Of a stretch of DNA of 17,384 nucleotides, positions 178-17,116 are shown piece by piece. The DNA comes from a virus (Duplodnaviria; Heunggongvirae; Uroviricota; Caudoviricetes): the IMG/VR virus record IMGVR_UViG_2778261639_000015, positions 1 to 17,384 of that record. One strand, 5' to 3'. Position 1 is the first letter of the stretch. The number at the start of each line of letters is the position of its first letter. The translations under genes and the position numbers were made by a program. Below the pieces are notes generated by a model. That model made no database searches, was not told the DNA's origin, and worked only from the letters and a program-made list of their open reading frames with translations.

Positions 178-184
178 ATTTCTT

Positions 185-1356: not shown

Positions 1357-1845
1357 ATGTTGGATGTATTTACTCCATTGTTGAAACTTTTTGCTAACGA
1401 GCCACTCGAAAGACTTATGTATACGATTATCATTTTTGGTCTCACTCTCTGGCTGATACCGAAAGAGTTTACTGTCGCATTCAATGCTTATACTGAAATA
1501 CCTTGGCTCTTTCAGATTATCGTTTTTGCCTTTTCTTTCGTGGTCGCCATTTCCTTCTCAAGATTGCGAGCACATATTCAAAAGCATTATTCATTACTAC
1601 CAGAGCAACGAGTATTGCTTCGTTTATCTGAGAAAGAAATAGCTGTATTTAAAGATTTCCTTAAAACAGGAAATCTTATTATCACTTCTCCTTGCCGTAA
1701 CCCGGTTATGAAAAAATTAGAACGGAAGGGCATCATTCAACATCAGAGTGATAGCGCAAACTGTTCTTATTATCTCGTCACCGAAAAATACTCCCATTTT
1801 ATGAAGTTATTCTGGAACAGCAGGAGTAGACGTTTTAATCGTTAG
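1357..1845 (+). CDS. sieB: SieB-like superinfection exclusion protein (162 aa, two hydrophobic helices)
   Basis: ORF 1234..1845 trimmed to the ATG at 1357 (MLDVFTPLLKLF...). Membrane-protein profile; same position and orientation as sieB in Rac and lambda, transcribed opposite to the early-left genes. Confidence 0.8.
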   Translation: MLDVFTPLLKLFANEPLERLMYTIIIFGLTLWLIPKEFTVAFNAYTEIPWLFQIIVFAFSFVVAISFSRLRAHIQKHYSLLPEQRVLLRLSEKEIAVFKDFLKTGNLIITSPCRNPVMKKLERKGIIQHQSDSANCSYYLVTEKYSHFMKLFWNSRSRRFNR

Positions 1846-1997
1846 TTTACTGTGTGCTTCTCCAACCATCGGCGCGCACCAGTTTCGGTTTTAAATGTTT
1901 TGCTTTTGGTATACGTCATAGCAGTGAACGTTCCATCTTGGTTGGGGAACACGCCGCACACCATGGATTCGTTATTGCCGAGGTCGATTTTTTGCAT
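1842..1997 (-). CDS. ydaF: YdaF (51 aa) small early-left protein
   Basis: Hand-translated MQKIDLGNNESMVCGVFPNQDGTFTAMTYTKSKTFKTETGARRWLEKHTVN; GAGGTG upstream. Its 3' end overlaps the convergent sieB stop by 4 nt. Confidence 0.75.
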   Translation of the reverse strand: MQKIDLGNNESMVCGVFPNQDGTFTAMTYTKSKTFKTETGARRWLEKHTVN

Positions 1998-2007
1998 TTT
2001 TCGCACC

Positions 2008-2142
2008 TCACATCTTGTTGTTGCGGATAGAGGCTTCTGCCTGCCAGAGATCCCAGTCGTTGCTGCGTAAAGCCTGCACAGCCTGGTTGTAAGTGATGCC
2101 GCAACAATCCATCAAATACTGAACTACTTCGTAATGCACCAT
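2008..2142 (-). CDS. ydaG: YdaG (44 aa) small early-left protein
   Basis: Hand-translated MVHYEVVQYLMDCCGITYNQAVQALRSNDWDLWQAEASIRNNKM; RBS AAGGGGAGAG upstream. First gene of the leftward operon. Confidence 0.75.
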   Translation of the reverse strand: MVHYEVVQYLMDCCGITYNQAVQALRSNDWDLWQAEASIRNNKM

Positions 2143-2311
2143 CTTATCTCTCCCCTTAACGCCGGGTGGCGGAACTAACTGCTGCACTGCAAAATTTGAA
2201 TCCCGCCGTCATGTTCATACGCCTCGGGCTGGCTACTTAACCCCTTACCACGGCCTGGTAACTCGAAGTATTGCCCGGCGTTCTGTGGGGCGGGGTGGGT
2301 GGTATGCTGGA

Positions 2312-2340
2312 ACTATAGGTAATGCCTAATTGATTGTCAA
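2312..2340 (-). promoter_or_regulatory. PL-like leftward sigma70 promoter (-35 TTGACA, 17-bp spacer, -10 TATAGT)
   Basis: Minus strand reads TTGACA (2340-2335), 17 nt, TATAGT (2317-2312). A GCCTAAT operator half-site lies in the spacer. It points toward ydaG. Confidence 0.5.
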
Positions 2341-2377
2341 TAGGCTGTGCCTAATGTTTTGAGCGTAACCTAATAGG
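2321..2377. promoter_or_regulatory. OL-like operator cluster: repeated ATTAGGC/GCCTAAT half-sites and one TAGGC-N3-GCCTA palindrome
   Basis: GCCTAAT at 2324-2330 and 2349-2355; palindrome TAGGCtgtGCCTA at 2341-2353; CCTAATAGG at 2369-2377. The same motif family occurs on the other side of racR. Confidence 0.5.
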
Positions 2378-2449
2378 TGATGACGACAGGAGAAAGTGAT
2401 GGGGGGTTAAATAACGGAATCCAGGAGTTTTCCGTCAGACCATATAAGT

Positions 2450-2926
2450 TTAAGTTCCAGTTTTTGTGATGTTCTGGCTTTTTCGTTCAGATTCTAGAGC
2501 TTTCAGATACTTACCCACTTTCATTTCCATCGCTGCTATGTAGGCGCGAACATCGTGGTCAACCCAATCTGGTTCTGTAGCATTTCCAGATAACAGGAAA
2601 GCTACAATCGCTCTTATTTCATCAGAGGCTGCTTGATAAAGGTTGTTTATATCTAAAAGTTCACTTTTTGTATCTGAATTGGTGGGGGTTGGTATGGGGT
2701 ATTCGTTAAGCCCCCAATGCTCTGGACCAACAACATCAGAAAAGAAACGCCATAATTCTGGAAGTTTATCTTTACTTATGGAGCCTTTCTTAATCCAGTC
2801 ATAAATTGATGGTGGTTGGACTTTGAAGTGGCGTGCGACCTCCGCCTTTGATTTGACGGATCCCGATGCGATTTTTTTGTTAATGGCCTGCTCTATCGCT
2901 CGGCCTAAGTCTTTACCACTAAGCAT
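2450..2926 (-). CDS. racR: RacR prophage repressor (158 aa)
   Basis: ORF 2450..2926 (MLSGKDLGRAIEQAINKK...). Divergent from ydaS with an operator-rich intergenic region; AGGAG RBS upstream of the start on the minus strand. Confidence 0.9.
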   Translation of the reverse strand: MLSGKDLGRAIEQAINKKIASGSVKSKAEVARHFKVQPPSIYDWIKKGSISKDKLPELWRFFSDVVGPEHWGLNEYPIPTPTNSDTKSELLDINNLYQAASDEIRAIVAFLLSGNATEPDWVDHDVRAYIAAMEMKVGKYLKALESERKSQNITKTGT

Positions 2927-2945
2927 TGCTTAATATTCTCCTATG

Positions 2946-3019
2946 CTCATTGCATTAGGCAATCCCTACCCTCATTGCATTAGGCATAGCCTATTGACAT
3001 TTATGTTAGGCGTCGCCTA
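2946..3019. promoter_or_regulatory. OR-like operator cluster: 16-bp direct repeat x2 plus two TAGGC-N3-GCCTA palindromes
   Basis: CTCATTGCATTAGGCA at 2946-2961 and 2971-2986 (25-bp period). Palindromes TAGGCataGCCTA at 2981-2993 and TAGGCgtcGCCTA at 3007-3019. Confidence 0.55.
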
Positions 3020-3023
3020 ATAT
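2994..3023 (+). promoter_or_regulatory. PR-like rightward sigma70 promoter for ydaS (-35 TTGACA, 18-bp spacer, -10 TAATAT)
   Basis: TTGACA at 2994-2999 and TAATAT at 3018-3023. The operator palindrome 3007-3019 overlaps the spacer and -10; the ydaS ATG at 3050 follows a GGAG. Confidence 0.5.
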
Positions 3024-3049
3024 TTCTGTGTGTTTTTGGAGTTCATTCG

Positions 3050-3346
3050 ATGAAAAAAGAGAACTATTCATTCAAGCAAGCTTGTGCTGTTGTCGGTGGG
3101 CAATCAGCAATGGCTAGGCTTTTAGGTGTATCACCTCCAAGCGTAAATCAATGGATCAAAGGGGTACGTCAATTGCCTGCCGAGAGATGTCCAGCAATTG
3201 AACGTGCAACAAGAGGTGAGGTTCTGTGCGAAGAACTTCGTCCTGATATTGACTGGTCATATTTACGACGTTCGGCATGTTGTTCGCAGAATATGTCAGT
3301 GAAGCAACTAAATGACAGTAACAAATCCTCATTTGATCATACCTGA
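3050..3346 (+). CDS. ydaS: YdaS (98 aa), Cro-like HTH protein; toxic when derepressed in K-12
   Basis: ORF 3050..3346 (MKKENYSFKQACAVVGGQSAMARLLGVSPPSVNQWIKG...), an HTH-like segment. First rightward gene after the OR region. Confidence 0.85.
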   Translation: MKKENYSFKQACAVVGGQSAMARLLGVSPPSVNQWIKGVRQLPAERCPAIERATRGEVLCEELRPDIDWSYLRRSACCSQNMSVKQLNDSNKSSFDHT

Positions 3347-3368
3347 AACATCAAGAGGCAAATGATTC

Positions 3369-3791
3369 ATGAAAATCAAGCATGAGCACATCGAATCAGT
3401 GTTGTTTGCCCTAGCAGCCGAAAAAGGGCAGGCATGGGTAGCCAATGCCATTACTGAAGAATATCTGCGCCAGGGGGGCGGCGAATTGCCCCTGGTTCCA
3501 GGCAAGGACTGGAACAATCAGCAGAATATCTATCACCGTTGGTTGAAAGGTGAAACGAATGCGCAAAGGGAAAAAATTCAGAAATTGATCCCTGCGGTTC
3601 TGGCAATTCTTCCTCGCGAGCTGCGTCACCGACTCTGCATCTTCGATACCCTGGAACGCCGTGCATTACTGGCGGCGCAGGAAGCGTTAAGTACGGCAAT
3701 TGATGCGCATGATGATGCAGTCCAGGCCGTTTACCGGAAAGCGCATTTCAGCGGCGGCGGGTCTTCCGACGATTCTGTCATTGTTCATTAA
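3369..3791 (+). CDS. ydaT: YdaT (140 aa) early protein
   Basis: ORF 3369..3791 (MKIKHEHIESVLFALAAEKGQAWV...), 140 aa as in K-12 YdaT; immediately downstream of ydaS. Confidence 0.85.
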   Translation: MKIKHEHIESVLFALAAEKGQAWVANAITEEYLRQGGGELPLVPGKDWNNQQNIYHRWLKGETNAQREKIQKLIPAVLAILPRELRHRLCIFDTLERRALLAAQEALSTAIDAHDDAVQAVYRKAHFSGGGSSDDSVIVH

Positions 3792-3803
3792 GCAAAAGTT
3801 TCC

Positions 3804-4661
3804 ATGCTGTTTGTGCTTATTCTAAGCAATCGGGCAGCATCATACGGGGCAATTATGGCCGCATTACCATACATGCAACTGTACATAGCTGATTACCTGG
3901 CTGACACCATGCATTTGTCAGCAGAGGAGCATGGTGCGTATTTGTTGCTGATGTTCAATTACTGGCAAACAGGAAAGCCAATACCTAAAAACAGGCTGGC
4001 AAAAATTGCCCGTCTGACTAACGAGCGATGGGCTGATGTTGAACCGTCCTTGCGGGAGTTTTTTTGCGATAACGGCGAGGAATGGGTGCATCTTCGGATT
4101 GAGGAAGATCTGGCATCAGTCAGGGAAAAATTAACCAAAAAATCAGCCGCAGGAAAAGCATCGGTTCAGGCCAGAAGAAGCAGAAAGGAAGCAGATGTTC
4201 AAACAAAACAAGAGAGAAATTTAACAGGTGTTCAAACAGATGTTGAAGTGGTGTTTGAACATGATGTCAACACAAAGGCAACTAATAAAGATACAGATAA
4301 AGATCTAAAAACAGATCCCCCCCTAAATCCCCCCCGGGGGAATCGAGGTGTCAAAAAGTTTGACCCTCTGGATATTGCTTTGCCGAACTGGATTTCTGTC
4401 TCGCTCTGGCGTGAGTGGGTTGAATTTCGCCAGGCATTGCGTAAACCGATTCGAACGGAGCAGGGCGCTAACGGGGCGATACGGGAGCTGGAAAAATTCC
4501 GCCAGCAGGGTTTTTCACCTGAGCAGGTGATTCGACACAGCATCGCCAATGAATACCAGGGCTTGTTCGCGCCAAAAGGTGTTCGACCTGAGACGTTACT
4601 CCGACAGGTTAACACCGTCTCGTTACCGGATAGTGCGATCCCGCCAGGCTTCAGGGGGTAA
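3804..4661 (+). CDS. ydaU: YdaU (285 aa), probable replication-initiation (O-like) protein
   Basis: ORF 3804..4661. No clear RBS at 3804; an alternative in-frame ATG at 3855 (MAALPYMQLY...) has a better GGGG-type RBS. Sits directly upstream of the DnaC-like loader. Confidence 0.75.
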   Translation: MLFVLILSNRAASYGAIMAALPYMQLYIADYLADTMHLSAEEHGAYLLLMFNYWQTGKPIPKNRLAKIARLTNERWADVEPSLREFFCDNGEEWVHLRIEEDLASVREKLTKKSAAGKASVQARRSRKEADVQTKQERNLTGVQTDVEVVFEHDVNTKATNKDTDKDLKTDPPLNPPRGNRGVKKFDPLDIALPNWISVSLWREWVEFRQALRKPIRTEQGANGAIRELEKFRQQGFSPEQVIRHSIANEYQGLFAPKGVRPETLLRQVNTVSLPDSAIPPGFRG

Positions 4662-4667
4662 CTGACC

Positions 4668-5414
4668 ATGAAAAATATTGCGGCAGGAGGCATTCTTGAA
4701 CGTATCCGCAGACTGGCCCCGCCACATGTAACCGCCCCATTCAAAACGGTAGCGGAGTGGCGCGAGTGGCAACTTTCCGAAGGCCAGAAACGTTGTGAGG
4801 AGATCAACCGTCAGAATCGTCAGTTGCGGGTGGAAAAAATTCTGAATCGCTCTGGCATCCAGCCATTGCACCGCAAATGCTCGTTTGCGAATTACCAGGT
4901 GCAGAACGACGGTCAGCGATACGCGTTGAACCAGGCGAAATCTATCGCTGATGAACTGATGACCGGGTGTACAAATTTTGCGTTCAGCGGAAAACCTGGT
5001 ACCGGAAAAAACCATCTGGCGGCGGCTATCGGGAATCGCCTGCTGAAAGATGGCCAGACAGTGATTGTGGTTACCGTGGCTGATGTCATGAGTGCTCTAC
5101 ACGCCAGCTATGACGACGGGCAATCAGGCGAAAAATTTTTGCGGGAACTGTGCCAAGTGGATCTGCTGGTTCTTGATGAAATTGGCATTCAGCGCGAGAC
5201 AAAAAACGAGCAGGTGGTGCTGCACCAGATTGTTGATCGCCGGACAGCGTCGATGCGCAGCGTGGGGATGCTGACAAACCTGAACTATGAGGCCATGAAA
5301 ACATTGCTCGGCGAGCGGATTATGGATCGCATGACCATGAACGGCGGGCGATGGGTGAATTTTAACTGGGAGAGCTGGCGTCCGAATGTCGTCCAGCCAG
5401 GAATTGCGAAGTGA
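4668..5414 (+). CDS. ydaV: YdaV (248 aa), DnaC-like replicative helicase loader
   Basis: ORF 4668..5414 with Walker [18 protein letters not shown] and Walker B LLVLDEIG; RBS AGGGGG upstream. Confidence 0.9.
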
Positions 5415-5436
5415 TTTTTACCGGGAGGAAATTTTA

Positions 5437-6198
5437 ATGGAAACCGTTTTTGATGCACTGAAAGCAATGGGAAAAGCCACGTCGGTAGAACTGGCTGCGC
5501 GACTTGATATCAGTCGTGAAGAAGTGCTGAACGAGCTGTGGGAACTTAAAAAGGCTGGCTTCGTTGATAAAAGCGTATACACCTGGCGTGTGGCTGATAA
5601 CAACGTTCAGCAGGAACAGCCAGAGCAGGCAGAACTGCCGGAAGAAACCACCACGGCAACAGTAGCGAAAATCTCAGAGTGCGATTTAACCGCGACGATT
5701 GAACAACGTGGCCCACAAACGGCGGATGAACTGGCTACGTTTTTCGGCACCACATCACGCAAAGTGGCTTCAACGCTGGCAATGGCAATCAGCAAAGGCC
5801 GTCTGATTCGCGTTAATCAGAACGGTAAATTTCGTTACTGCATGCCGGGCGATGATTTACCAGCAGAGCCGAAAGCTGCATCGGTAACGGAAACTGATGG
5901 TAAAACCTTTCCTCAGCCAGCCGGTGTTGCGTTACCAGTACAGGAAGCGGCAACACAGGAAGATATTAAAACAGAAACTGTGGCGGACATTGTGCAGTCG
6001 CTGCCATCGTTTACTGAAACGCGAGCTGATGACCTGATTTTGCCATCGCTGCATATGGCAAACCGCGAACTGCGTCGGGCGAAAAATCATGTCCAGAAGT
6101 GGGAGCGAGTCTGCGCCGCGCTGCGGGAGCTGAACAAGCACCGGGATATTGTTCGACAGATTGCTGATTCTTCCCGCCGTGTTGTATCGGAAAAGTGA
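5437..6198 (+). CDS. YdaW-like hypothetical protein (253 aa); probably the intact version of the gene that is a remnant in K-12
   Basis: ORF 5386..6198 trimmed to the ATG at 5437 ([13 protein letters not shown]...), with GGGAGG 7 nt upstream. Acidic, low-complexity middle region. Confidence 0.6.
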
Positions 6199-6213
6199 TT
6201 GCCGGAGGCGCTT

Positions 6214-6645
6214 ATGGCAAAAGTATTTACACAAGAAGAGCGGGAAAAAATTAAAGGGCAGGTTGTTGAGCTAGTACGCCGGAGTGGACGCGAGACGTTA
6301 CGACAACTGGAGGCCAAGACAGGTGCGACAAGATATCTGATGAGCGTTCTCGCCAGAGAGCTGGTTGCCAGTGGCGATGTATACAACTCTGGTTACGGGT
6401 TATTCCCGTCTGAACAGGCTCGTAAGGACTGGCAAAATGCCCGCAAAAAACTATCCAGGGCAAAGGTGAAGAAACCATCTGTGGTTGATCCGGACCTTAT
6501 CTGGTCATTACCAGACGGAGAAATACGCCGCTACGACAGGCGTCTGAACATAATCTGTCGCGAGTGCCGGAAGAGTGAAGTTATGCAGCGTGTGCTGGCG
6601 TTTTATCAGAATGGTTTTCGAGAGAGGCTTGGAGATCAGGGATGA
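6214..6645 (+). CDS. Hypothetical protein (143 aa), basic; function unknown
   Basis: ORF 6199..6645 trimmed to the ATG at 6214 (MAKVFTQEEREK...), with GGAGG upstream. Last gene before the AT-rich insertion. Confidence 0.5.
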   Translation: MAKVFTQEEREKIKGQVVELVRRSGRETLRQLEAKTGATRYLMSVLARELVASGDVYNSGYGLFPSEQARKDWQNARKKLSRAKVKKPSVVDPDLIWSLPDGEIRRYDRRLNIICRECRKSEVMQRVLAFYQNGFRERLGDQG

Positions 6646-6838
6646 ATAGAACGATGAAGGATGGAAGCTACATATTCTCGGTACTAAGATTTATTTTTCT
6701 GACACAAAATGACCATTTGGCGTTACATAATCCCAAAAAAACGTATCAAAAATCTCAAAATGCGTTACGATTAGAGAGTATTTTGATTCTGCGTGCTCAT
6801 TTTTTGATTGCTGTGGCTTTTTGTTGTGGGAGTGTTGA

Positions 6839-7993
6839 ATGGATTATTTATCAGAAGTGTTAAAAATCATTGAAGGTGCAACAAAGGCAAATGCTTCGAT
6901 GGCTAGTAATTATGCTGGGTTGCTGGCAGATAAGCTCGAACAAAAAGGGGAGGTCAAGCAAGCCAGAATGATAAGAGAAAGGTTGCTTAGAGCTCCCCAG
7001 GCGTTGGCAGGAGCTCAAAGGGCTGGAGGTGGGATATCTCTGGGCTCATTACCGGTAGATATTGATAGTCGACTCAACACTGTTGATGTCAGTTATCCTA
7101 AATTAGACAGTTCAGAGATTTTTCTGCCTGCAGCAATCAGTACCCGTGTTGAAGAGTTTATCACTAATGTTCAACGTTATGATGAGTTTGTTAAAGCTGA
7201 TGCAGCATTGCCGAGTCGTATGCTCGTGTATGGAAAGCCAGGAACAGGTAAGACTATGTTATCTAAGTACATCGCTACCCGCTTAGATTTTCCACTTCTT
7301 ACAGTGCGTTGCGATACTTTGATTAGTAGTTTATTGGGACAAACCAGCAAAAATCTTAGACAGGTTTTCGATTATGTAATGCAGAGGCCATCAGTGCTTT
7401 TTTTAGACGAATTTGATGCTTTAGCTGGAGCAAGAGGTAATGAGAGAGATATAGGTGAGCTTCAGCGAGTTGTCATTTCACTATTGCAGAATATGGATGC
7501 GGCATCAGAGGATACGGTAATTATTGCCTCAACTAACCATGAGCAACTTCTGGATCCTGCAATCTGGAGGCGATTTAGCTTCAGAATTCCAATGCCTCTG
7601 CCTGACATACATCAGAGAGAGTTAATTTGGAAAAATCGTTTAAAGAATATGATATGTAGCGATCTAGATTTAAGTGATTTATCAAGAAAATCGGAAGGAT
7701 TATCCGGAGCAATAATTGAACAGGTGAGCTTGGATGCACGTAGGGATGCAGTTATTGAAGGTGCAAGTGTGATAAATCACCATAAATTGTATAGGCGTTT
7801 GTATCTTGCTCAATCGCTTATGGAAGGTGTAAATTTAAGCACTTACGAAGATGAAATTCGTTGGTTACGTTCTAAAGATAAAAAATTATTTTCTATCAGA
7901 GTTCTTGCTAATTTGTACAAACTTACATCAAGAGTAATTTCAAACATTCTGAAGGAGTCAGGAGCATATGAGCAGAAGGGGTACACAGTTTAG
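6839..7993 (+). CDS. AAA+ ATPase (384 aa, classical clade) with ~125-aa N-terminal extension; first gene of a candidate defence pair
   Basis: Walker A GKPGTGKT (aa 132-139, nt 7232-7255), Walker B VLFLDE (aa 186-191), sensor-1 STN (aa 231-233), Arg in the second region of homology (GARG, aa 197-200). RBS GGGAG 6 nt upstream. AT-rich codon usage. Confidence 0.85.
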   Translation: MDYLSEVLKIIEGATKANASMASNYAGLLADKLEQKGEVKQARMIRERLLRAPQALAGAQRAGGGISLGSLPVDIDSRLNTVDVSYPKLDSSEIFLPAAISTRVEEFITNVQRYDEFVKADAALPSRMLVYGKPGTGKTMLSKYIATRLDFPLLTVRCDTLISSLLGQTSKNLRQVFDYVMQRPSVLFLDEFDALAGARGNERDIGELQRVVISLLQNMDAASEDTVIIASTNHEQLLDPAIWRRFSFRIPMPLPDIHQRELIWKNRLKNMICSDLDLSDLSRKSEGLSGAIIEQVSLDARRDAVIEGASVINHHKLYRRLYLAQSLMEGVNLSTYEDEIRWLRSKDKKLFSIRVLANLYKLTSRVISNILKESGAYEQKGYTV

Positions 7994-10232
7994 TAACGCA
8001 AAAGTTACAAACCCAATGTTAAGAATCCCTTTTTCCAGTAGTGACTTGGGTGCAATAGTAAACGCTGGCGGTGGGGCAAAGGTATTGGTTGATGTAACAG
8101 CCGAATATAGACAAGGGCTAGTAAGAAATTTAACAACCAGTAAACATTATTTAGAATCCAAACTTTCAGAGTACCCTGGAAGCTTGGGTACTTTGGTTTT
8201 CAAATTAAGAGACCAGGGAATAGCCAAAACGCATAGGCCGAACAAAATTGCTCAAGAGGCTGGATTGCAAAATGCCGGTCATGCCAAAATAGATGAAATG
8301 TTGGTTGCTGCTCATGCCGGCTGTTTTGACGTATTAGAGTCAGTCATTTTACATCGGAATATTAAAGCGATTTTGGCTAATCTAAGCGCGATTGAGCGCA
8401 TTGAACCTTGGGATGAGAATAGGAAGGTTCCAGGAGGCACTGATGGTTTGTTTGAATCATCAAACATCCTTGTACGACTATTTGAGTACACAGGTGAAGA
8501 TGCAACTTACAACAACTATGAAAACGTTATTTCTATATTAGAACAACACGGAGTTAAATATGATGAGATTAGACAAAAATGTGGTCTTCCCTTATTAAGG
8601 ATAATGGATTTATCCCCAAATGATAGATATATATTAGACATTCTCATTGATTACCCGGGTATAAGAACGTTAATTCCAGAACCAAAATATTCAGCATTCC
8701 CGGTTAGTGTAAGTGATTCTGTTGGCATTGAAACAAATAGCTTTCCCGTACCATCAGAAGAATTACCCATTGTTGCTGTATTTGACACTGGGGTAAGCCC
8801 CATCGCGGCAACAATTACTCCTTGGGTAGTGAGTAGGGAAACATACGTAATTCCTCCTGATACGAGTTATGAACATGGGACTATGGTGTCTTCATTGATA
8901 TCAGGCGCTCATTTTTTAAATGACAATCATCCATGGATTCCTGATACAAAATCTAAAATCCATGATGTTTGTGCTTTAGATGAAAATGGATCTTATATAT
9001 CAGATTTAATTCTGAGGCTAGCAGATGCTGTAAATAAAAGACCAGATATAAAAGTCTGGAATTTGTCTTTGGGAGGCGGACCATGTAATGAGCAGACGTT
9101 TAGTGATTTTGCGATGGAGTTAGATCGGCTCAGCGATAAATTTGGTATTTTGTTTGTAGTTGCTGCAGGTAATTATGTAGATGAACCTATACGTACATGG
9201 CCAAATCCTGATCCGCTTGGAGGTGCTGATTTAATTTCCTCTCCTGGAGAGTCAGTCCGAGCACTAACAGTTGGTTCAGTTTCTCATATGGAAGCTAATG
9301 ATGCTTTAAGTGAAATTGGAACACCGACACCATATACTCGTCGTGGCCCTGGGCCTGTATTTACTCCAAAGCCAGATATAATCCATGCTGGCGGTGGGGT
9401 TCATAGACCTTGGAATGTAGGAGCAAGCAGTTTAAAGGTCGTAGGGCCAGATAATAGGCTTTGCTCTAATTTTGGTACTAGTTTTGCTGCTCCAATTGTG
9501 GCAAGTTTAGCTGCGCATACATGGCAGAGAATAGCCACTAATTCAGACTTTAATGTTTCACCATCATTGATTAAAGCATTATTAATTCATTCCGCTCAAT
9601 TATCTTCTCCTGATTACTCGCCAAGTGAAAGACGCTATTTGGGAGCGGGAATTCCTAATGAAGTTATTGAGACCTTATATGATAGTGATGATAGGTTTAC
9701 TCTGATTTTCCAAACATTCTTGGTTCCTGGGGTGAGGTGGAGAAAGGAAAACTATCCCATACCATCGGCACTTATTCAAAATGGAAAATTTAAAGGTGAG
9801 ATTGTAATTACTGCTGCATATGCACCACCACTGAACCCTAATGCCGGCAGTGAATATGTTCGCGCGAACGTAGAGCTAAGTTTTGGCTTAATTGAGAATA
9901 ATACTATAAAAGGAAAAGTGCCTATGGAAGGAGAAAACGGTCAATCTGGATATGAGAGAGCTCAAATTGAGCATGGTGGAAAGTGGTCACCAGTAAAAAT
10001 TCATCGCAAGGCATTTAATAAAGGAATTACTTCGGGTAACTGGGCTCTTCAGGCTAAAACAACGTTGAGAGCGAATGAACCGGCCTTAATGGAGCCTTTA
10101 CCTGTAACTATTGTAGTAACTTTAAAATCATTAGATGGAAACACACAAGTTTATGCTGATGGCGTAAGAGCTTTAAATGCTAATAACTGGGCTCACTATC
10201 CATTGCCTGCTCGTGTGCCAGTTTCCGTATAA
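7968..10232 (+). CDS. Subtilisin-like S8 serine protease (754 aa), no signal peptide, with large N- and C-terminal non-catalytic domains
   Basis: Catalytic motifs in subtilase order: D273 in VAVFDTGV (nt 8784-8786), H303 in YEHGTMV (nt 8874-8876), oxyanion N365 in WNLSLGG, S505 in GTSFAAP (nt 9480-9482). The start overlaps the ATPase 3' end by 26 nt. Confidence 0.9.
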   Translation: MSRRGTQFSNAKVTNPMLRIPFSSSDLGAIVNAGGGAKVLVDVTAEYRQGLVRNLTTSKHYLESKLSEYPGSLGTLVFKLRDQGIAKTHRPNKIAQEAGLQNAGHAKIDEMLVAAHAGCFDVLESVILHRNIKAILANLSAIERIEPWDENRKVPGGTDGLFESSNILVRLFEYTGEDATYNNYENVISILEQHGVKYDEIRQKCGLPLLRIMDLSPNDRYILDILIDYPGIRTLIPEPKYSAFPVSVSDSVGIETNSFPVPSEELPIVAVFDTGVSPIAATITPWVVSRETYVIPPDTSYEHGTMVSSLISGAHFLNDNHPWIPDTKSKIHDVCALDENGSYISDLILRLADAVNKRPDIKVWNLSLGGGPCNEQTFSDFAMELDRLSDKFGILFVVAAGNYVDEPIRTWPNPDPLGGADLISSPGESVRALTVGSVSHMEANDALSEIGTPTPYTRRGPGPVFTPKPDIIHAGGGVHRPWNVGASSLKVVGPDNRLCSNFGTSFAAPIVASLAAHTWQRIATNSDFNVSPSLIKALLIHSAQLSSPDYSPSERRYLGAGIPNEVIETLYDSDDRFTLIFQTFLVPGVRWRKENYPIPSALIQNGKFKGEIVITAAYAPPLNPNAGSEYVRANVELSFGLIENNTIKGKVPMEGENGQSGYERAQIEHGGKWSPVKIHRKAFNKGITSGNWALQAKTTLRANEPALMEPLPVTIVVTLKSLDGNTQVYADGVRALNANNWAHYPLPARVPVSV

Positions 10233-10245
10233 CAACTATATAAAT

Positions 10246-10275
10246 CAAACCCGCTGTAGCGGGTTTGATTTATTT
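10246..10275 (+). terminator. Rho-independent terminator after the protease gene
   Basis: Stem AAACCCGC (10247-10254), loop TGTA, stem GCGGGTTT (10259-10266), followed by a T-rich tail (gatttatttgtg). Confidence 0.6.
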
Positions 10276-10648
10276 GTGGGTGTGTTTTATAAAAATACCG
10301 CCCATACACAACAAAATACAAAAAGTATTACAGATAAAAAAGGAGCGTAATGTGCAGATTTGTTGTTTTCCATATTTACTCACCTTAATATGATTAATCC
10401 TGGTAAGATTGTTATTTCAGCGGTTTTCAAATGAGATATTATGCTAATCTGGCAGATTTGCATAACATTAAAATTTAATTTGTCTAACCGCTTTTAATAA
10501 TAAGCGTTGTATTTTTATCCCAGCAATCTATTGTTTGATTTTTATTCCATCAATGTGGGGGCTTTACACTGGAACCAGTTTATTTATACTTTATACGTCA
10601 GCCTGAACAACTGGCATCTGCTGCACTGCGCCATCGAGAGATTGAGAA

Positions 10649-11248
10649 ATGGCGCATATACAACTGGTCAAACAAACTTCTTCTGGTTTACTTCTCCCGG
10701 CGACGCCGGAGAGTTGCGATTTTCTGCATCAAATCAAAATAGGTGAGTGGATACACGCAGACTTTAAGCGTGTGCGTAACTACGCATTCCACAAGCGTTT
10801 TTTCAAACTCCTGCAACTGGGATTCGATTACTGGACTCCGGTCGGTGGGGCGATCACGCCTCGCGAACGAAAACTGGTGTCCGGTTTCGTTGATTATCTG
10901 TGTGAATCAGTAGGCCGGGAACATACGCCAGCTCTGAGCGAAGCCGCAGATCAATATCTGAATACAGTTGCGACACGCAGAACCCGGGATACGGCATTGC
11001 TAAAGTCGTTTGAGGCTTTCCGCGAGTGGGTAACCATTCAGGCCGGATTTTACACCGAGCATCTTTATCCTGATGGTAGTCGTGGGCGTCGGGCGAAATC
11101 TATCGCGTTTGCGAATATGGAGGAAACCGAGTTTCAGCAGGTTTATAAATCTGTACTGAATGTGCTGTGGAACTGGATCCTGTACCGAAAATTTTCCTCT
11201 CCGGAACAGGTCGAAAATGTGGCCGCGCAGCTACTGGAGTTTGCGTAA
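10649..11248 (+). CDS. DUF1367-like nin-region protein (199 aa)
   Basis: ORF 10649..11248 (MAHIQLVKQTSSG...). Size and position (upstream of a YbcO-like gene and a Q-like gene) match DUF1367 proteins of lambdoid prophages; family assignment is from memory. Confidence 0.5.
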   Translation: MAHIQLVKQTSSGLLLPATPESCDFLHQIKIGEWIHADFKRVRNYAFHKRFFKLLQLGFDYWTPVGGAITPRERKLVSGFVDYLCESVGREHTPALSEAADQYLNTVATRRTRDTALLKSFEAFREWVTIQAGFYTEHLYPDGSRGRRAKSIAFANMEETEFQQVYKSVLNVLWNWILYRKFSSPEQVENVAAQLLEFA

Positions 11249-11538
11249 TGGTGGATTTACGTAAAGCGGCGCGGGGGCAGATGTGCACCGTCAGAATTCC
11301 TGGCTACTGCAATCACGATCCGGAAACGTCTGTGCTGGCGCATTACCGACTGGCGGGAACGTGCGGAACAGCGACAAAACCACACGATATGCAGGCGGCG
11401 ATTGCCTGTAGCTCATGCCACGATCTAATCGACGGGCGGGTAAAAACCAGCGATTACACCAAAGAAGAATTACGCCTGATGCATGCAGAAGGTGTTTTTC
11501 GCACACAAGAAATCTGGAGAAAGGAGGGATATTTGTGA
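11248..11538 (+). CDS. YbcO-like putative zinc-binding nuclease (DUF1364-type, 96 aa)
   Basis: ORF 11167..11538 trimmed to the ATG at 11248 (MVDLRKAARGQMCTVRIPGYCNHD...CSSCHDLIDG...). The start overlaps the upstream stop (TAATG). Cys/His motifs; 96 aa as in DLP12 YbcO. Confidence 0.6.
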   Translation: MVDLRKAARGQMCTVRIPGYCNHDPETSVLAHYRLAGTCGTATKPHDMQAAIACSSCHDLIDGRVKTSDYTKEELRLMHAEGVFRTQEIWRKEGYL

Positions 11539-12077
11539 TTTACCCAACGAATACAGGAAAAAGCGGAGAACACCTTCGTCTCGCCACGCTGGAAAGTGTC
11601 TGGATTCAGGGCAAACTGCGTATGTGGGGGCGCTGGTCGTATATTGGCGGTGGCAGGTCAGGGAATATGTTCAATCAGTTGTTGGCATCCAAAAAACTGA
11701 CGAAAACAGCCATTAATGAAGCCCTGCGCAGAATGAAAAAAGCGGGAATAGAGAAAGCTGAGCTGGAAGCGTTTTTGCGAGAGATGATCAACGGCAAGCA
11801 AAAGAGCTGGCTGGCGCATTGTACTGATGCAGAGGCGTTATGTATTGATCGAGTCATAAGTGAGGTGCTGGCAGAGCATCCAGGATTGATTTGCATTCTC
11901 CGGCAACGCTATGAAGGGCGGGGGATGACTAAGCGCAAAATGGCTGAATTGCTAAATGATGCACACCCAGAGTGGTGTTTTAGCACATGCGAAAAACGGA
12001 TTGCTAATTGGTTAGCTGTTGCTGAGTATGCCCTATATATTCCCATGCGTGAATCATTTGCTGAGAAAATGGCTTGA
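11535..12077 (+). CDS. Putative late-gene antiterminator (Q-like), ~180 aa
   Basis: ORF 11415..12077 trimmed to the GTG at 11535, with AAGGAGGG 6 nt upstream; overlaps the YbcO-like stop (GTGA). Last gene before a terminator and the lysis cassette. Assignment is positional plus weak motif memory; start is uncertain (alternative ATG at 11622). Confidence 0.45.
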   Translation: MIYPTNTGKSGEHLRLATLESVWIQGKLRMWGRWSYIGGGRSGNMFNQLLASKKLTKTAINEALRRMKKAGIEKAELEAFLREMINGKQKSWLAHCTDAEALCIDRVISEVLAEHPGLICILRQRYEGRGMTKRKMAELLNDAHPEWCFSTCEKRIANWLAVAEYALYIPMRESFAEKMA

Positions 12078-12157
12078 TTTCTTACGTATAAACTGCTTCA
12101 ATTTTGCTATGCTTCGCAAAGCTGTATCGCGAGGCGGATTGCAGACATGGACATCGT

Positions 12158-12186
12158 AAAAAAACCGCTTAATGCGGTTTTTTTAC
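12158..12186 (+). terminator. Rho-independent terminator ~90 nt downstream of the Q-like gene (tR'-like)
   Basis: A-run, stem AACCGC (12163-12168), loop TTAAT, stem GCGGTT (12174-12179), then T-run; near-symmetric, so possibly bidirectional. Confidence 0.6.
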
Positions 12187-12504
12187 GTCAGGAAAGCAGG
12201 GGAGAATGCTGCTAGTTGGGCAACTGGTCTTTCTGCTCCAAATTATAACAGAGACCAGTTATAGTTTCGGTGCTGTGTTTTTTTTACAATATTGTGATAA
12301 CACATTGCTGGCGGGAGTTTTGATATTTCTTGGCAGGGGCTGATGATGCGTTATCCTGATGTCGTCAACTCATATAAAATGAGATGAGAGATCATTGCAG
12401 GGTGGTTTGTAATTCGCTGTTTAGCGGGACAATATGTTGTCTGATACAAGACACCCGACGCCTCAGATTACTATAATAAAGACGAAGCATCCTTTGTATT
12501 GACC

Positions 12505-12531
12505 AACCGCCTGTTTAGGCGGTTCTTTTTG
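12505..12531 (+). terminator. Second rho-independent terminator in the Q-to-lysis spacer
   Basis: Stem AACCGCCT (12505-12512), loop GTTT, stem AGGCGGTT (12517-12524), then CTTTTT. Confidence 0.5.
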
Positions 12532-13121
12532 GGCTGGTTTATTGTATGCCAAATGATTATTAAAAAGGTTGTGTTAATAACAAAATCCGAAATAATATGC
12601 CTGCATATTTTTATCTTGCTTATATTCTGCATATTGTGCATAGCAGGCTCATCCCTGCAATCAAAACTGTATGATGAGTATTTTTTGTTTTCCTTTTTTC
12701 CAGTCATCTGATGATGACCTGCTTCTTTTTAATCCGGATCGACATCAGTTTTTTAAGATAATTCCTGCGAGTTATATGCATAAATGCCACAAACTCCGCA
12801 TTTTATGTGGTTGGGAGTTGCCGGGCGCGCAGTGAGTTTGCTAAGAAAACTCCTGCATGGTGAATCCCCCTGTGCGGTGGGGTGATACCATTAACCTTTT
12901 CTGTCGCCGACAGGTATCACGAACATTTTGTTCACCGGGAGGCACCCGGCACCATGCACTTCAATAGATTCTCTCCACATTATGGATATTCTTTCAGAAT
13001 ATCCCACGCAGACTTTGTGTAAATGTTAACAAATGTGCGTTTTATTTGATCTGATTCGCTGTTTGAGCGTCCAAAACAACGGTATATATAATCCTTTACT
13101 ATATGACATATGTGAGGAAAA

Positions 13122-13550
13122 ATGGGTTTTCGTAGCGCATCAATTCTTACGTTGATTATTAGTGGGATTATTATCGGGTGCACTGATGCTGTATCGACAA
13201 ATTATCATGACCGTACATCATATTACTCCGATAAAGCAATAGAGACACAGTATGTGAGTTCATCTGAACGTACTTCTGATGTTAGTGAGGATATCCGTCT
13301 GTATGCCCATCAAATCAAGAGCGCCATCGAAAAACAGTTCGGGGATGCGAGTAAGTATTCAGGAAAAGAGTGTACACTGAGAATGCATATGGCCCCGAAT
13401 GGCCTTCTACTGGAGGTTAAAAGAGAAAGTGGAGACCTCGATTTATGTCGTGAAGCGATGAATGCGATAAAGAATGCTGATATACCTGCCCCCCCTTCGC
13501 CGGAAGTATATAAAGTATTTCAAAATGGGGTGCTGGATTTTAAACCCTGA
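13122..13550 (+). CDS. Lipoprotein with TolA C-terminal domain III-like domain (142 aa)
   Basis: Signal peptide with lipobox IIGC. C-terminus (YAHQIKSAIEKQFGDASKYSGKECTLRMHMAPNGLLLEVKRESGDLDLCREAMNAIKNADIPAPPSPEVYKVFQNGVLDFKP) closely resembles E. coli TolA domain III as I recall it (...YAGQIKSAIESKFYDASSYAGKTCTLRIKLAPDGMLLDIKPEGGDPALCQAALAAAKLAKIPKPPSQAVYEVFKNAPLDFKP). Own promoter-like elements: TTGAGC 13063-13068, TATAAT 13087-13092; RBS GAGG. Confidence 0.8.
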   Translation: MGFRSASILTLIISGIIIGCTDAVSTNYHDRTSYYSDKAIETQYVSSSERTSDVSEDIRLYAHQIKSAIEKQFGDASKYSGKECTLRMHMAPNGLLLEVKRESGDLDLCREAMNAIKNADIPAPPSPEVYKVFQNGVLDFKP

Positions 13551-13700
13551 TATTTATTGTTTTGTAATAAACGGTTTCGGCTTAGGTTTGTTCTGACACA
13601 GCTACGGCACTGAGCTAAATTTAGCGGATAGTCAGCTCTGAGCCAGTGGCGGACGTAACAACTACTATTGCTGAGATTTTAATGGATTGAGGAGCAAGAA

Positions 13701-14096
13701 GTGGGATTAAAGAAAATCGTTATGTTGACTTTTTGGGTCGGTTTTGTTGCGGGATGCACACCTTTACACCCTTCAGATTGCCACAAAACTACTGCTACAG
13801 GTAGTTGCAGTTCAGGACGCTGGGATGATCAGGATGAATGGGGGGCGCAAGCGCGGGGAATCAGAGCTGCAATTAATGCCAAACTTGATGAGCCGCATAA
13901 CTGGAAAGGGAAAAAATGCAGGTTGCATATGGAATTCTCTCAGGATGGCACGGCGTTAAAAATATCTACCAGTAACGGTGATAAAGCCTATTGCGAAGCG
14001 ATAAAGTCCGCAGCTCATAAAGCCAAATTTCCGGCCTTCAACAATCCGGAAGTCTACAGAGATTTTCAGAAATCTGGCTTTGACATGCGAGGTTAG
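13701..14096 (+). CDS. Second, divergent TolA-III-like lipoprotein (131 aa), GTG start
   Basis: GTG at 13701 with TGAGGAG 6 nt upstream; signal peptide with lipobox VAGC. Its C-terminal half keeps the same spacing of conserved residues as the upstream paralog (I..AI...GK.C.L......G......GD..C.A...A.K....P.......VY..F). Confidence 0.65.
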   Translation: MGLKKIVMLTFWVGFVAGCTPLHPSDCHKTTATGSCSSGRWDDQDEWGAQARGIRAAINAKLDEPHNWKGKKCRLHMEFSQDGTALKISTSNGDKAYCEAIKSAAHKAKFPAFNNPEVYRDFQKSGFDMRG

Positions 14097-14221
14097 CTCT
14101 TCAATTACTATATCTCATTCATAGCAAACTGACAGATTTGATGATGTTCTATATACGAAACCTGTGATGTCAAGTCTGAGCTAATACAAATAAACATAAT
14201 ATCAGAGAAATACATTTTATT

Positions 14222-14245
14222 AGCTCGCTACGGCGAGCTTTTTAT
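14222..14245 (+). terminator. Rho-independent terminator between the lipoprotein genes and the holin
   Basis: Stem AGCTCGC (14222-14228), loop TACG, stem GCGAGCT (14233-14239), then TTTTT. Confidence 0.55.
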
Positions 14246-14347
14246 ATTGCATCGTCTCCAGCATATATATCAATTAAGGCTCTGATTGATGTGTCTGAAA
14301 GCCTACACATAATAACTATGCCATCCGTTCCGTGCGGAGGTGAGGCT

Positions 14348-14563
14348 ATGAAATCCATGGACAAAATTTCAACAGGCATTGCCTACGGCACCTCCGCAGG
14401 CAGTGCTGGCTACTGGTTTTTACAGTTGCTCGATAGAGTAACTCCGTCACAGTGGGCTGCAATCGGTGTGCTGGGTAGTCTGGTATTTGGCCTGCTGACG
14501 TACCTGACAAACCTTTATTTCAAGATTAAAGAAGATAAGCGCAAGGCTGCGAGAGGTGAATAA
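14348..14563 (+). CDS. Phage-21-type pinholin (S21-like, 71 aa) with dual-start motif MKSM
   Basis: ORF 14291..14563 trimmed to the ATG at 14348 ([28 protein letters not shown]...), with GGAGGTGAGG upstream. Second in-frame ATG at 14357 gives the holin/antiholin pair. Confidence 0.85.
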
Positions 14564-15060
14564 TGCCTCCATCATTACGAAAAGCCGTTGCTGCTGCTAT
14601 TGGTGGCGGAGCAATTGCTATAGCATCAGTGTTAATCACTGGCTCAAGTGGTAACGATGGTCTGGAGGGTGTCAGCTACATACCATACAAAGATATTGTT
14701 GGTGTATGGACTGTATGTCACGGGCATACAGGAAAAGACATCATGCTCGGTAAAACGTATACCAAAGCAGAATGCAAAACACTCTTGAATAAAGACCTTG
14801 CCACTGTCGCCAGACAAATTAACCCGTACATCAAAGTCGATATACCGGAAACAACGCGCGGCGCTCTTTACTCATTCGTTTACAACGTGGGTGCTGGCAA
14901 TTTCAGAACATCGACGCTTCTTCGCAAAATAAACCAGGGCGATATCAAAGGCGCATGTGATCAGCTACGTCGCTGGACATATGCTGGCGGTAAGCAATGG
15001 AAAGGTCTCATGACTCGTCGTGAGATTGAGCGTGAAATCTGTTTGTGGGGTCAGCAATGA
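14563..15060 (+). CDS. SAR endolysin (R21-like lysozyme, 165 aa)
   Basis: N-terminal signal-anchor-release segment [20 protein letters not shown] followed by a T4-lysozyme-type catalytic region ([24 protein letters not shown]). The ATG overlaps the holin stop (TAATG). Confidence 0.9.
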
Positions 15061-15521
15061 ACAGAGTAACCGCGATTATCTCCGCTCTGGTTATCTGCAT
15101 CATCGTCTACCTGTCATGGGCTGTTAATCATTACCGTGATAACGCCATTACCTACAAAGCCCAGCGCGACAAAAATGCCAGAGAACTGAAGCTGGCGAAC
15201 GCGGCAATTACTGACATGCAGATGCGTCAGCGTGATGTTGCTGCGCTCGATGCAAAATACACGAAGGAGTTAGCTGATGCGAAAGCTGAAAATGATGCTC
15301 TGCGTGATGATGTTGCCGCTGGTCGTCGTCGGTTGCACATCAAAGCAGTCTGTCAGTCAGTGCGTGAAGCCACCACCGCCTCCGGCGTGGATAATGCAGC
15401 CTCCCCCCGACTGGCAGACACCGCTGAACGGGATTATTTCACCCTCCGGGAACGACTGGTAATGATGCAGGCCCAACTTGAAGGTGCTCAGCAATACATA
15501 ACCGAGCAGTGTTTAAAGTAA
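15057..15521 (+). CDS. rzpR: Rz i-spanin (154 aa), lambda-Rz-like
   Basis: ORF 15045..15521 trimmed to the ATG at 15057 ([38 protein letters not shown]...), near-identical to lambda Rz as I recall it. The start overlaps the endolysin stop (ATGA). Confidence 0.85.
15277..15462 (+). CDS. rzoR: Rz1 o-spanin lipoprotein (61 aa) embedded in the +1 frame of Rz
   Basis: [24 protein letters not shown]...[15 protein letters not shown]: lipobox VVGC and a proline-rich mature region, entirely inside the Rz gene. Confidence 0.85.
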
Positions 15522-15658
15522 AATCTTAACTACAATATGATTCATTTTGATGATTGTTTCATAAGGAACAGTGAAGTAAGATCTAAGAGGAGTTAAATTT
15601 TATACAGTATAATCATAATATTGCAGCAAGGTGGTTATAATTGAAAGAATATTTAGAT

Positions 15659-17116
15659 ATGAATACATCTCATGTAAGAGTTGTTACTCATATGTGTGGG
15701 TTCCTGGTTTGGCTCTATAGTCTTTCAATGTTGCCACCAATGGTTGTAGCATTGTTTTATAAAGAAAAAAGCCTGTTCGTTTTCTTTATAACTTTCGTTA
15801 TATTTTTTTGCATTGGTGGCGGAGCGTGGTATACAACTAAGAAATCTGGCATTCAATTACGTACCCGTGATGGGTTTATTATAATTGTAATGTTTTGGAT
15901 TTTGTTTTCTGTTATTAGTGCATTCCCTTTATGGATTGACTCAGAACTTAATTTAACGTTCATTGATGCTCTGTTTGAAGGGGTTTCTGGAATAACAACA
16001 ACAGGAGCAACTGTAATTGATGATGTTAGTTCATTACCTCGGGCATATTTGTACTATCGGTCACAGTTAAATTTTATAGGTGGTTTAGGAGTTATTGTTC
16101 TGGCGGTTGCAGTATTGCCATTATTGGGTATTGGTGGTGCAAAGCTTTATCAGTCAGAAATGCCGGGGCCATTTAAGGATGACAAACTCACTCCCCGCCT
16201 GGCCGATACGTCACGGACACTGTGGATAACTTATTCTTTATTAGGTATTGCTTGTATTGTCTGTTATAGACTTGCAGGAATGCCTTTGTTTGATGCTATT
16301 TGTCACGGGATTTCCACAGTTTCGCTTGGTGGTTTCTCAACTCATAGCGAGAGTATCGGATATTTTAATAACTATTTGGTTGAGCTGGTGGCTGGTTCTT
16401 TTTCCCTGCTATCGGCTTTCAACTTCACTCTTTGGTATATTGTTATTAGCAGAAAAACGATAAAACCTTTAATCAGAGATATTGAACTTCGTTTCTTTCT
16501 GTTAATAGCCTTAGGGGTGATCATTGTTACCTCTTTCCAGGTCTGGCATATAGGTATGTATGACTTGCATGGAAGTTTTATTCATTCGTTTTTTCTTGCC
16601 AGCTCCATGCTCACTGATAATGGTTTAGCTACGCAGGATTATGCAAACTGGCCCACGCACACGATAGTGTTTTTGCTGTTGTCAAGTTTCTTTGGGGGAT
16701 GTATCGGTTCAACCTGTGGTGGAATTAAGTCACTTCGATTTCTTATACTTTTCAAACAAAGCAAACACGAGATAAATCAACTTTCTCATCCCAGAGCGTT
16801 GTTAAGTGTAAATGTAGGAGGGAAGATAGTTACAGATCGTGTAATGAGGTCTGTATGGAGTTTCTTTTTTCTTTATACTCTCTTCACGGTGTTTTTTATA
16901 CTGGTGTTAAATGGTATGGGATATGATTTTCTTACATCATTTGCAACAGTGGCTGCATGTATTAATAATATGGGATTAGGTTTTGGGGCTACTGCATCGT
17001 CATTCGGAGTGCTTAATGACATTGCAAAATATTTAATGTGCATAGCTATGATTCTTGGTCGCCTTGAAATTTATCCTGTTATTATATTGTTTTCAGGTTT
17101 TTTTTGGCGCTCCTAA
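15659..17116 (+). CDS. trkG: TrkG K+ uptake protein (485 aa), prophage-borne paralog of TrkH
   Basis: ORF 15641..17116 trimmed to the ATG at 15659 (MNTSHVRVVTHMCGFLVWLYSL...). Multi-pass membrane protein with repeated glycine-containing selectivity-filter-like motifs; AT-rich. Matches K-12 TrkG length and sequence from memory. Confidence 0.95.
   Translation: MNTSHVRVVTHMCGFLVWLYSLSMLPPMVVALFYKEKSLFVFFITFVIFFCIGGGAWYTTKKSGIQLRTRDGFIIIVMFWILFSVISAFPLWIDSELNLTFIDALFEGVSGITTTGATVIDDVSSLPRAYLYYRSQLNFIGGLGVIVLAVAVLPLLGIGGAKLYQSEMPGPFKDDKLTPRLADTSRTLWITYSLLGIACIVCYRLAGMPLFDAICHGISTVSLGGFSTHSESIGYFNNYLVELVAGSFSLLSAFNFTLWYIVISRKTIKPLIRDIELRFFLLIALGVIIVTSFQVWHIGMYDLHGSFIHSFFLASSMLTDNGLATQDYANWPTHTIVFLLLSSFFGGCIGSTCGGIKSLRFLILFKQSKHEINQLSHPRALLSVNVGGKIVTDRVMRSVWSFFFLYTLFTVFFILVLNGMGYDFLTSFATVAACINNMGLGFGATASSFGVLNDIAKYLMCIAMILGRLEIYPVIILFSGFFWRS

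Follow-up and report, generated by a model that had tools for sequence, protein, structure and literature searches.

What is an AT-rich pair of genes for an ATPase and a subtilisin-like protease doing between the replication genes and the Q-like gene of a prophage? The question is raised by IMGVR_UViG_2778261639_000015, an IMG/VR record of a Caudoviricetes virus, whose positions 1 to 17,384 are the whole stretch of DNA analyzed here and are referred to as the window. A sequence-only reading of this DNA had proposed the pair as a candidate anti-phage system resembling ietAS. Our analyses leave hardly any doubt that the pair is IetAS, and we identify the window as a Rac-type Escherichia coli prophage that bears this known defence and toxin-antitoxin cassette. 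The genes and motifs that carry the identification are listed below in window coordinates.

6839..7993, + strand: ietA (iteA in RefSeq), encoding a 384-residue classical-clade AAA+ ATPase (Pfam AAA, E = 2.6e-30)
Motifs of ietA: Walker A GKPGTGKT, nucleotides 7232-7255 (K138); Walker B VLFLDE from residue 186, nucleotides 7394-7417 (D190/E191); sensor-1 N233; arginines R244/R245
7968..7993, + strand: 26-nucleotide overlap of the ietA 3' end and the ietS 5' end, from the coordinates of the open reading frames (ORFs), with the same starts in RefSeq PGAP calls of identical loci
7968..10232, + strand: ietS (iteS in RefSeq), encoding a 754-residue cytoplasmic S8 subtilase (Pfam Peptidase_S8)
Catalytic residues of ietS: D273, nucleotides 8784-8786; H303, 8874-8876; oxyanion N402, 9171-9173; S505, 9480-9482

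Identity and distribution of the gene pair

Both products gave full-length matches to PADLOC models (IetA, PDLC02196, E = 8.9e-143; IetS, PDLC02197, E = 4.1e-301), and both exceeded the cut-off of an NCBIfam equivalog over the complete profile, with 526.6 bits against a cut-off of 510 for NF042959 IteA_antiphage (profile positions 1-367 of 367) and 1044.1 bits against 900 for NF042956 IteS_antiphage (positions 1-747 of 747). Furthermore, the two proteins were 100% identical to the E. coli O84:H7 Trh52 RefSeq entries WP_000385105.1 ("anti-phage ATPase IteA") and WP_053883961.1 ("S8 family anti-phage peptidase IteS"). These three lines of evidence establish the homology to ietAS that the sequence-only reading had put forward as a resemblance. 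An alternative assignment of IetA as a TRIP13/HORMA regulator of a cyclic oligonucleotide-based antiphage signaling system (CBASS) was rejected, as TRIP13 PADLOC models reached only E = 2.4e-16 against 8.9e-143 for IetA; the window contained no HORMA or cyclase gene. The system is named ietAS in PADLOC, iteA/iteS in RefSeq, and Gao_Iet in DefenseFinder.

Confirming the motif positions read earlier from the sequence, which were all correct (Walker A K138, Walker B, sensor-1, and D273/H303/S505), we found the Walker A lysine, the Walker B aspartate and glutamate, the sensor-1 asparagine, and the two arginines of IetA to be invariant in 70 homologues, and D273, H303, N402, and S505 of IetS to be invariant across homologues. 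The nearest solved relatives of IetA were p97/Cdc48 D2 domains, followed by proteasomal ATPases, with a further resemblance to FtsH by NCBIfam; its first 104 residues matched no Pfam family even at E <= 1. The PDB held only generic p97/Cdc48 and subtilase matches and no structure of IetA or IetS.

An AlphaFold2 model of IetS built on a 35-sequence alignment (predicted local distance difference test [pLDDT] score 81.5, predicted template modeling [pTM] score 0.86) suggested the following three domains.

IetS residues ~1-250: predicted N-terminal alpha/beta domain
IetS residues ~262-560: predicted catalytic domain
IetS residues ~570-745: predicted C-terminal beta-sandwich

Neither terminal domain matched a Pfam family even at E <= 1. 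IetS, whose N terminus is polar and whose maximum Kyte-Doolittle 19-residue score is 1.48, lacks a signal peptide and transmembrane segments. The model also contained a beta-alpha-beta-beta-alpha-beta element just before the catalytic domain. Pfam gave no Inhibitor_I9 propeptide match at E <= 1 on residues 1-265, and hhalign of the IetS family alignment against pre-pro-subtilisin BPN' aligned the catalytic domain alone. With support from neither method, we rejected an I9 propeptide, which persists only as a weak structural hint.

The allele occurred in 78 of 5426 complete E. coli genomes (1.4%), in each as a single chromosomal copy of at least 99.6% DNA identity. All 78 genomes shared the same flanks, so that the allele occupied the same Rac-like prophage slot every time. 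IetS was also encoded on 26 IMG/VR viral contigs, and a search of approximately 5.8 billion proteins returned 310 IetS relatives at E <= 1e-10. The best 120 of these 310 were all about 750 residues long and came from Enterobacterales, Pseudomonas, Aeromonas, Burkholderiales, and other groups; many were already named IteS. Sampling GTDB at one genome per species recovered 73 ietS loci, which allowed the pairing of the two genes to be counted as the sequence-only reading had proposed. An IetA homologue lay directly upstream on the same strand in 69 of 69 complete loci with upstream DNA, and this synteny held from 84% down to 24% IetS identity, including loci of Streptococcus, Chryseobacterium, and an archaeal metagenome-assembled genome of the Thermoplasmatales. 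The exceptions (4 of 73) were one contig end, two C-terminal remnants, and one chance match.

The surroundings of these homologues were examined in 148 nearest neighbor ORFs from 39 diverse IetAS loci. Phage integrase (9 ORFs), KfrA (8 ORFs), and AbiEii-type AAA_21 (4 ORFs) were the commonest families, and type I and type III restriction, Shedu, RES-domain, relaxase, and IS66 genes were found as well. In Agrobacterium vitis, a Shedu nuclease gene of plasmid NZ_CP118262 is preceded, about 360 nucleotides upstream, by a distant IetAS pair (ATPase of 400 residues, peptidase of 833 residues, 8-nucleotide overlap), and a single small ORF intervenes; the region resembles a small defence island carried by a conjugative plasmid. 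As far as their sequences tell, IetA and IetS are two intact enzymes that are obligatorily paired, cytoplasmic, and carried on mobile elements.

Individual E. coli strains showed variation at ietS. IetS of strain SCU-104 differed at five residues (M17T, H129N, H194Y, N218S, and T377M). Insertions of the IS3 family of insertion sequences (ISs) were present at or near ietS in strains F2_81, SCU-316, and c1-17, and the labels given to the region in 28Eco12 and NR3736, "S8 family peptidase" plus "hypothetical protein," suggest that these copies are disrupted.

The same interval has been cloned before. Among the primers tabulated by Wu et al. (bioRxiv 10.1101/2022.08.21.504612) are FN0414 and FN0415, given for "ietAS from ECOR52," and the 3' parts of these primers anneal at window positions 6647-6668 (0 mismatches) and 10628-10648 (1 mismatch), by which the ECOR52 amplicon is essentially window 6647-10648. 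Because the ECOR52 primers anneal at its ends, the cloning and phage-panel experiment has already been performed on this interval: Wu et al. placed the amplicon under pBAD and challenged it with 29 phages, and its clearest effect was synergy with Zorya II against T3. The same study used the prophage location of ietAS to explain its mutual exclusion with Zorya II. Relative to the E. coli IetAS/IteAS of Gao et al. 2020, RefSeq, and ECOR52, the window pair has the same proteins (by RefSeq), gene order, overlap, flanks, and prophage slot, and nothing of substance differs; the Rac segment here is bounded by IS481-family ends.

Cassette borders, cargo slot, and expression signals

The sequence-only reading had placed the insertion at 6646-10648. 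Blastn comparison with ON470614, a Rac-like phage holding other cargo in the same slot, does not bear out these borders: the two sequences were 93% identical up to 6609 and again from 10286. Because homology to ON470614 ends at 6609 and resumes at 10286, we place the cassette at 6610-10285, where it substitutes the last 36 nucleotides of the DUF977 gene, and we assign 10286-10648 to AT-rich shared backbone upstream of the DUF1367 gene, outside the insertion. No flanking direct or inverted repeats were found at the cassette edges 6610 and 10285; a 15-nucleotide similarity between 6602-6616 and 6847-6861 was considered as a border repeat and is probably due to chance. The features of the cassette outside ietA and ietS are as follows.

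6610..6716, + strand: left junction DNA, common to neither the ON470614 backbone nor the Citrobacter cassette, including the divergent last 36 nucleotides of the DUF977 gene (end 6645)
6717..6838, + strand: conserved region 5' of ietA, with two GCGTTAC repeats and a GGGAG Shine-Dalgarno sequence (6828-6832) 6 nucleotides before the ATG
10240..10289, + strand: terminator-like hairpin at the right end of the cassette, with a 16-bp perfect stem (10240-10273) and a CCCGC/GCGGG core, followed by a T-rich tail

The composition of the insert supported the earlier description in kind and corrected it in degree. The interval 6646-10648 has a GC content of 39.2% (ietA, 40.0%; ietS, 40.1%), against 50.5% in the left flank (3804-6645) and 49.5% in the right flank (10649-12077). 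The insert is AT rich relative to its flanks as claimed, by a contrast of about 11 points and not 15 to 25; the backbone is near 50% and not ~55%, and 300-nucleotide windows inside the insert range over 33-46% and not 27-42%. Equally AT-rich DNA occurs elsewhere in the window, at 1-1800 (40.3%) and in trkG (37.7%).

The cassette is flanked by the DUF977 gene (ending at 6645) and by DUF1367, YbcO, and DUF1133/Q-like genes, in agreement with the flanking identities given for the DUF1367, YbcO-like, and Q-like genes. Related prophages hold other cargo in the same position. Between its DUF977 and DUF1367 genes, ON470614 carries a KilA-N/BstA-like protein (PADLOC BstA, E = 3e-21). In Rac-SA53 the slot is occupied by a PD-Lambda-2 "beta" protein (E = 1e-41) together with a cII-like gene, IS1, and hok/mok, and in PhiR42_1 by an orphan methyltransferase along with transposases, relBE, and a hok-like gene. 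Because related prophages hold differing defence and toxin-antitoxin cargo there, the comparison marks this slot as a genuine cargo hotspot, which upholds the earlier view of the region between replication genes and Q as a hotspot for defence cargo.

Alignment with an 84-91% identical Citrobacter cassette showed high conservation from about 6717 on and poor conservation before it, and 6717-6838 is likely a putative promoter/operator region of ietA. The GCGTTAC direct repeats, at 6720-6726 and 6762-6768, are spaced 42 nucleotides apart within the block conserved in the E. coli and Citrobacter cassettes and may be a candidate operator for autoregulation, by analogy with many toxin-antitoxin operons. 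A sigma-70 consensus scan of 6646-6838 returned no site at its threshold, and candidates found by eye were wrongly spaced. A 73-residue ORF at 6642-6863, running across the stop of DUF977 and the start of ietA, is unlikely to be a gene; it had no Pfam or PADLOC match and was not called by PGAP, and it is labeled "kinase (fragment)" in the phage record ON470595.

The two co-oriented genes with a 26-nucleotide overlap, as first described, were reproduced by the ORF coordinates and PGAP starts, and the overlap suggests that ietA and ietS are probably translationally coupled. Most close homologous loci (43-84% identity) overlap too, and Streptococcus-type loci abut. One phage record begins ietS at the Met-17 codon instead of M1. 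M1 was conserved without exception in 35 homologues, and a GGAG lies 3 nucleotides before its ATG, while residue 17 is Thr in SCU-104 and Phe in the family consensus; because of this pattern, we regard the overlap as real. Downstream of ietS, the strong intrinsic terminator proposed earlier corresponds to the perfect 16-bp repeat at 10240-10273 and its T-rich tail. This hairpin folds with a free energy of -26 kcal/mol (z = -7.0; 0 of 200 shuffles folded as well), and a simple terminator scan called it on the minus strand only.

Possible modes of action

Taken together, these analyses make it very probable that the window carries the known IetAS system as a self-contained cassette (upstream region, ietA, ietS, and terminator; ~6610-10285) in a variable slot of a Rac-type prophage, acting by a toxin-antitoxin/abortive-infection outline. 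According to this outline, IetS would be a protease toxic to the cell that IetA, as an AAA+ protein, would restrain in an ATP-dependent way, behaving as an antitoxin. A phage protein made in infection would disturb the restraint, and proteolysis by the freed IetS would arrest or kill the infected cell before the release of phage progeny. The same toxin-antitoxin behavior would tend to counter loss of the prophage from the chromosome as well. That the outline applies to this allele in particular is, by analogy with the systems described below, somewhat favored, and any specific molecular detail added to it should be considered doubtful.

The toxin-antitoxin part of the outline comes from two relatives. 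IetAS of plasmid pTiC58 (Yamamoto et al. 2009) is described, as cited in PMC13069673 and PMC8562856, as a plasmid-stabilizing pair with the protease as toxin and the ATPase as antitoxin. We took as pTiC58 ietA and ietS the pair at 97873-101373, the only ATPase and S8 pair in the plasmid region examined, an assignment made by architecture. As in the window, the S8 peptidase has an AAA+ ATPase directly upstream, and both ATPases match the same PADLOC IetA models. The pTiC58 pair differs in having a peptidase of 836 rather than 754 residues, genes 3 nucleotides apart rather than overlapping, and a plasmid rather than a prophage location. In BLASTP, its ATPase was 36% identical to the window IetA over 211 residues (E = 1e-42), whereas its peptidase was 23% identical to the window IetS in the catalytic domain only (E = 3e-5). 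The pTiC58 peptidase matched PADLOC IetS weakly (best E, 4.8e-25) and through a different sub-model than the window IetS, and pTiC58 was not among the best 60 tblastn matches. Because of these identities and the different PADLOC peptidase sub-models, we place the window pair as a distant member of the broad IetAS family and an exact member of its anti-phage subfamily.

The second relative is the TA132/133 pair of Mycoplasma mycoides, in which the AAA-ATPase gene is essential only when the subtilisin-like protease gene is present and which shows toxin-antitoxin behavior in E. coli (PMC8562856). TA132/133 has the same two-gene architecture, similar sizes (353 and 757 residues), and an ATPase that neutralizes a toxic protease. 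Unlike the window pair, TA132/133 is chromosomal, in a minimal genome, without a shown link to phages; the two pairs are compared here by architecture.

Two anti-phage systems inform the remaining part of the outline. With Bacillus cereus m1293 ietAS, expression of yosG of phage SPbeta was toxic only in system-bearing cells, and liquid infections supported abortive infection (Stokar-Avihail et al., bioRxiv 10.1101/2022.08.27.505566). This is the same named system, and it presents abortive infection triggered by a phage protein; it differs from the window pair as a Gram-positive homologue tested in Bacillus subtilis, and no counterpart of its trigger yosG is known for the E. coli allele. In ietHAS (Liu-DS4), defence required protease activity, and no ietA mutant could be obtained (PMC13069673). 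This system shares the ietA and ietS modules with the window pair but has a third essential gene, ietH, coding for an SNF2-type helicase, and no such gene adjoins the window pair. How IetAS acts against phages was still called unknown in April 2026 (PMC13069673). Our literature searches turned up no paper dedicated to the IetAS mechanism, one search being swamped by unrelated uses of "IETs."

Several points weigh against the outline as applied to this locus. Wu et al. report "limited anti-phage activity" for single systems, ietAS included (bioRxiv 10.1101/2022.08.21.504612), and the defence phenotype of this allele may be narrow. The activity of this copy is deduced from the 100% identity of its proteins to RefSeq entries and at least 99.6% DNA identity to other strains, and the consensus scan found no promoter 5' of ietA, leaving expression in the lysogen unproven. 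The evidence for abortive infection comes by analogy from the B. cereus homologue, which is outside this subfamily, and with pTiC58 IetS only 23% identical, toxin-antitoxin behavior would be extrapolated across a large distance.

One elaboration of the outline concerns IetS itself, which might be an auto-inhibited pro-enzyme with its conserved 250-residue N-terminal region, which ends in the beta-alpha-beta-beta-alpha-beta element, as a covalent prodomain, held in that state by IetA, with its unusual nonaromatic S-L-L-G pore loop, until a phage decoy substrate or inhibitor of IetA freed the protease. We consider this elaboration a long shot. If true, it would be a new way of coupling an unfoldase-type ATPase to an immune protease.

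Phage defence might instead be a side effect of a pair that serves mainly as an addiction module, retaining in the chromosome, by postsegregational killing, either the Rac-type prophage or the 17-kb segment between the IS ends. The founding pTiC58 description of a plasmid-stabilizing pair, in the citations given above, points this way, as do the hok/mok and relBE genes in the same slot of related prophages, the frequently defective state of cassette-bearing Rac variants (with recE and ydaV pseudogenes in SCU-104), and the nearly clonal allele (at least 99.6% identity) that is always linked to this prophage. In contrast, homologues that were cloned without any mobile element around them still confer phage protection (Gao 2020, cited from PMC13069673; B. 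cereus, bioRxiv 10.1101/2022.08.27.505566). As the main role of the pair, addiction is possible without being probable. It is compatible with the data and probably coexists with defence, and it is better viewed as a second function than as a true rival.

IetA and IetS might alternatively form a two-part ATP-dependent protease similar to ClpXP or the proteasome, in which the AAA+ ring would unfold phage proteins for the subtilase and confer direct, nonsuicidal immunity. The placement of IetA in the classical AAA+ clade nearest to p97/Cdc48 D2 domains, proteasomal ATPases, and FtsH fits such an arrangement, as do the invariant Walker A, Walker B, sensor-1, and arginine residues and the overlapping genes, which suggest a stoichiometric complex. 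Published toxicity data disfavor it, as does pore loop 1 of IetA. At this position (residues 161-168, window 7319-7342), 49 of 70 homologues have S-L-L-G, 18 of the Streptococcus type have K-L-G, and 3 have an aromatic residue, which departs from the aromatic-hydrophobic-Gly of threading AAA+ unfoldases; pTiC58 IetA has F-M-G there. We consider a two-part protease unlikely for the window pair.

Finally, the idea of a secreted or housekeeping subtilase served by a maturation ATPase of its own, without any immune role, although S8 subtilases are mostly secreted and the beta-alpha-beta-beta-alpha-beta element of the model could be prodomain-like, can be dismissed as extremely improbable for an IetS that has no signal peptide, transmembrane segment, or I9 propeptide by Pfam (E <= 1) or hhalign, that is found in just 1.4% of complete E. 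coli genomes, and whose homologues neighbor mobile-element and defence genes (integrases, plasmid genes, restriction-modification, Shedu, AbiEii-type) and not the housekeeping genes that the sequence-only reading had named as a sign against its proposal.

Prophage setting and significance

The whole window is approximately 98% identical to Rac-type prophages of E. coli and has the following organization.

Gene order across the window: racC, kilR, sieB, racR, ydaS/T/U/V, DUF1627, DUF977, ietAS, DUF1367, DUF1364/YbcO, DUF1133/Q-like, lysis genes, trkG

Further Rac-type accessory genes lie at 1234-1845, 2450-2926, 3050-3791, and 15641-17116, and comprise sieB (superinfection exclusion), racR, the ydaS/ydaT pair (annotated toxins), and the potassium transporter gene trkG, AT rich at 37.7% GC. 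Between the Q-like and lysis genes are two ORFs (13122-13550 and 13701-14096) with TolA C-terminal domains (Pfam TolA, E = 2e-23 and 1e-14). The TolA-domain ORF pair is also present in strain SCU-104, a Rac variant with recE and ydaV pseudogenes, whereas the corresponding place holds tRNA-Thr and tRNA-Gly in Trh52 and in phage vB_EcoS-683R6; the window itself is free of tRNA genes.

Window positions 1-77 are the exact reverse complement of 17308-17384, and all E. coli matches to the window span only 78-17307. This terminal 77-mer corresponds to the end of an IS481-family element that is present in many copies, matching at up to 38 sites in a genome. The Rac segment, which runs from racC to 54 nucleotides into a ParB/Srx-like gene, has this IS end on both sides, in inverted orientation. 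Since assemblers commonly use k = 77, the window has the look of a complete assembly contig broken in IS copies; a real composite-transposon-like or inverted arrangement may alternatively account for its ends.

The system itself is already known, being named in RefSeq, PADLOC, and NCBIfam, with its prophage location published and this interval already cloned and phage tested. Our analyses add the cassette borders at 6610-10285, the confinement of the allele to one prophage slot in complete E. coli genomes, and a map of the IetS domains. IetAS belongs to those defence systems for which the literature still lacks a mechanism, and in E. coli it rides on a prophage. The two conserved IetS domains without a Pfam match are features that any mechanistic study would need to explain.

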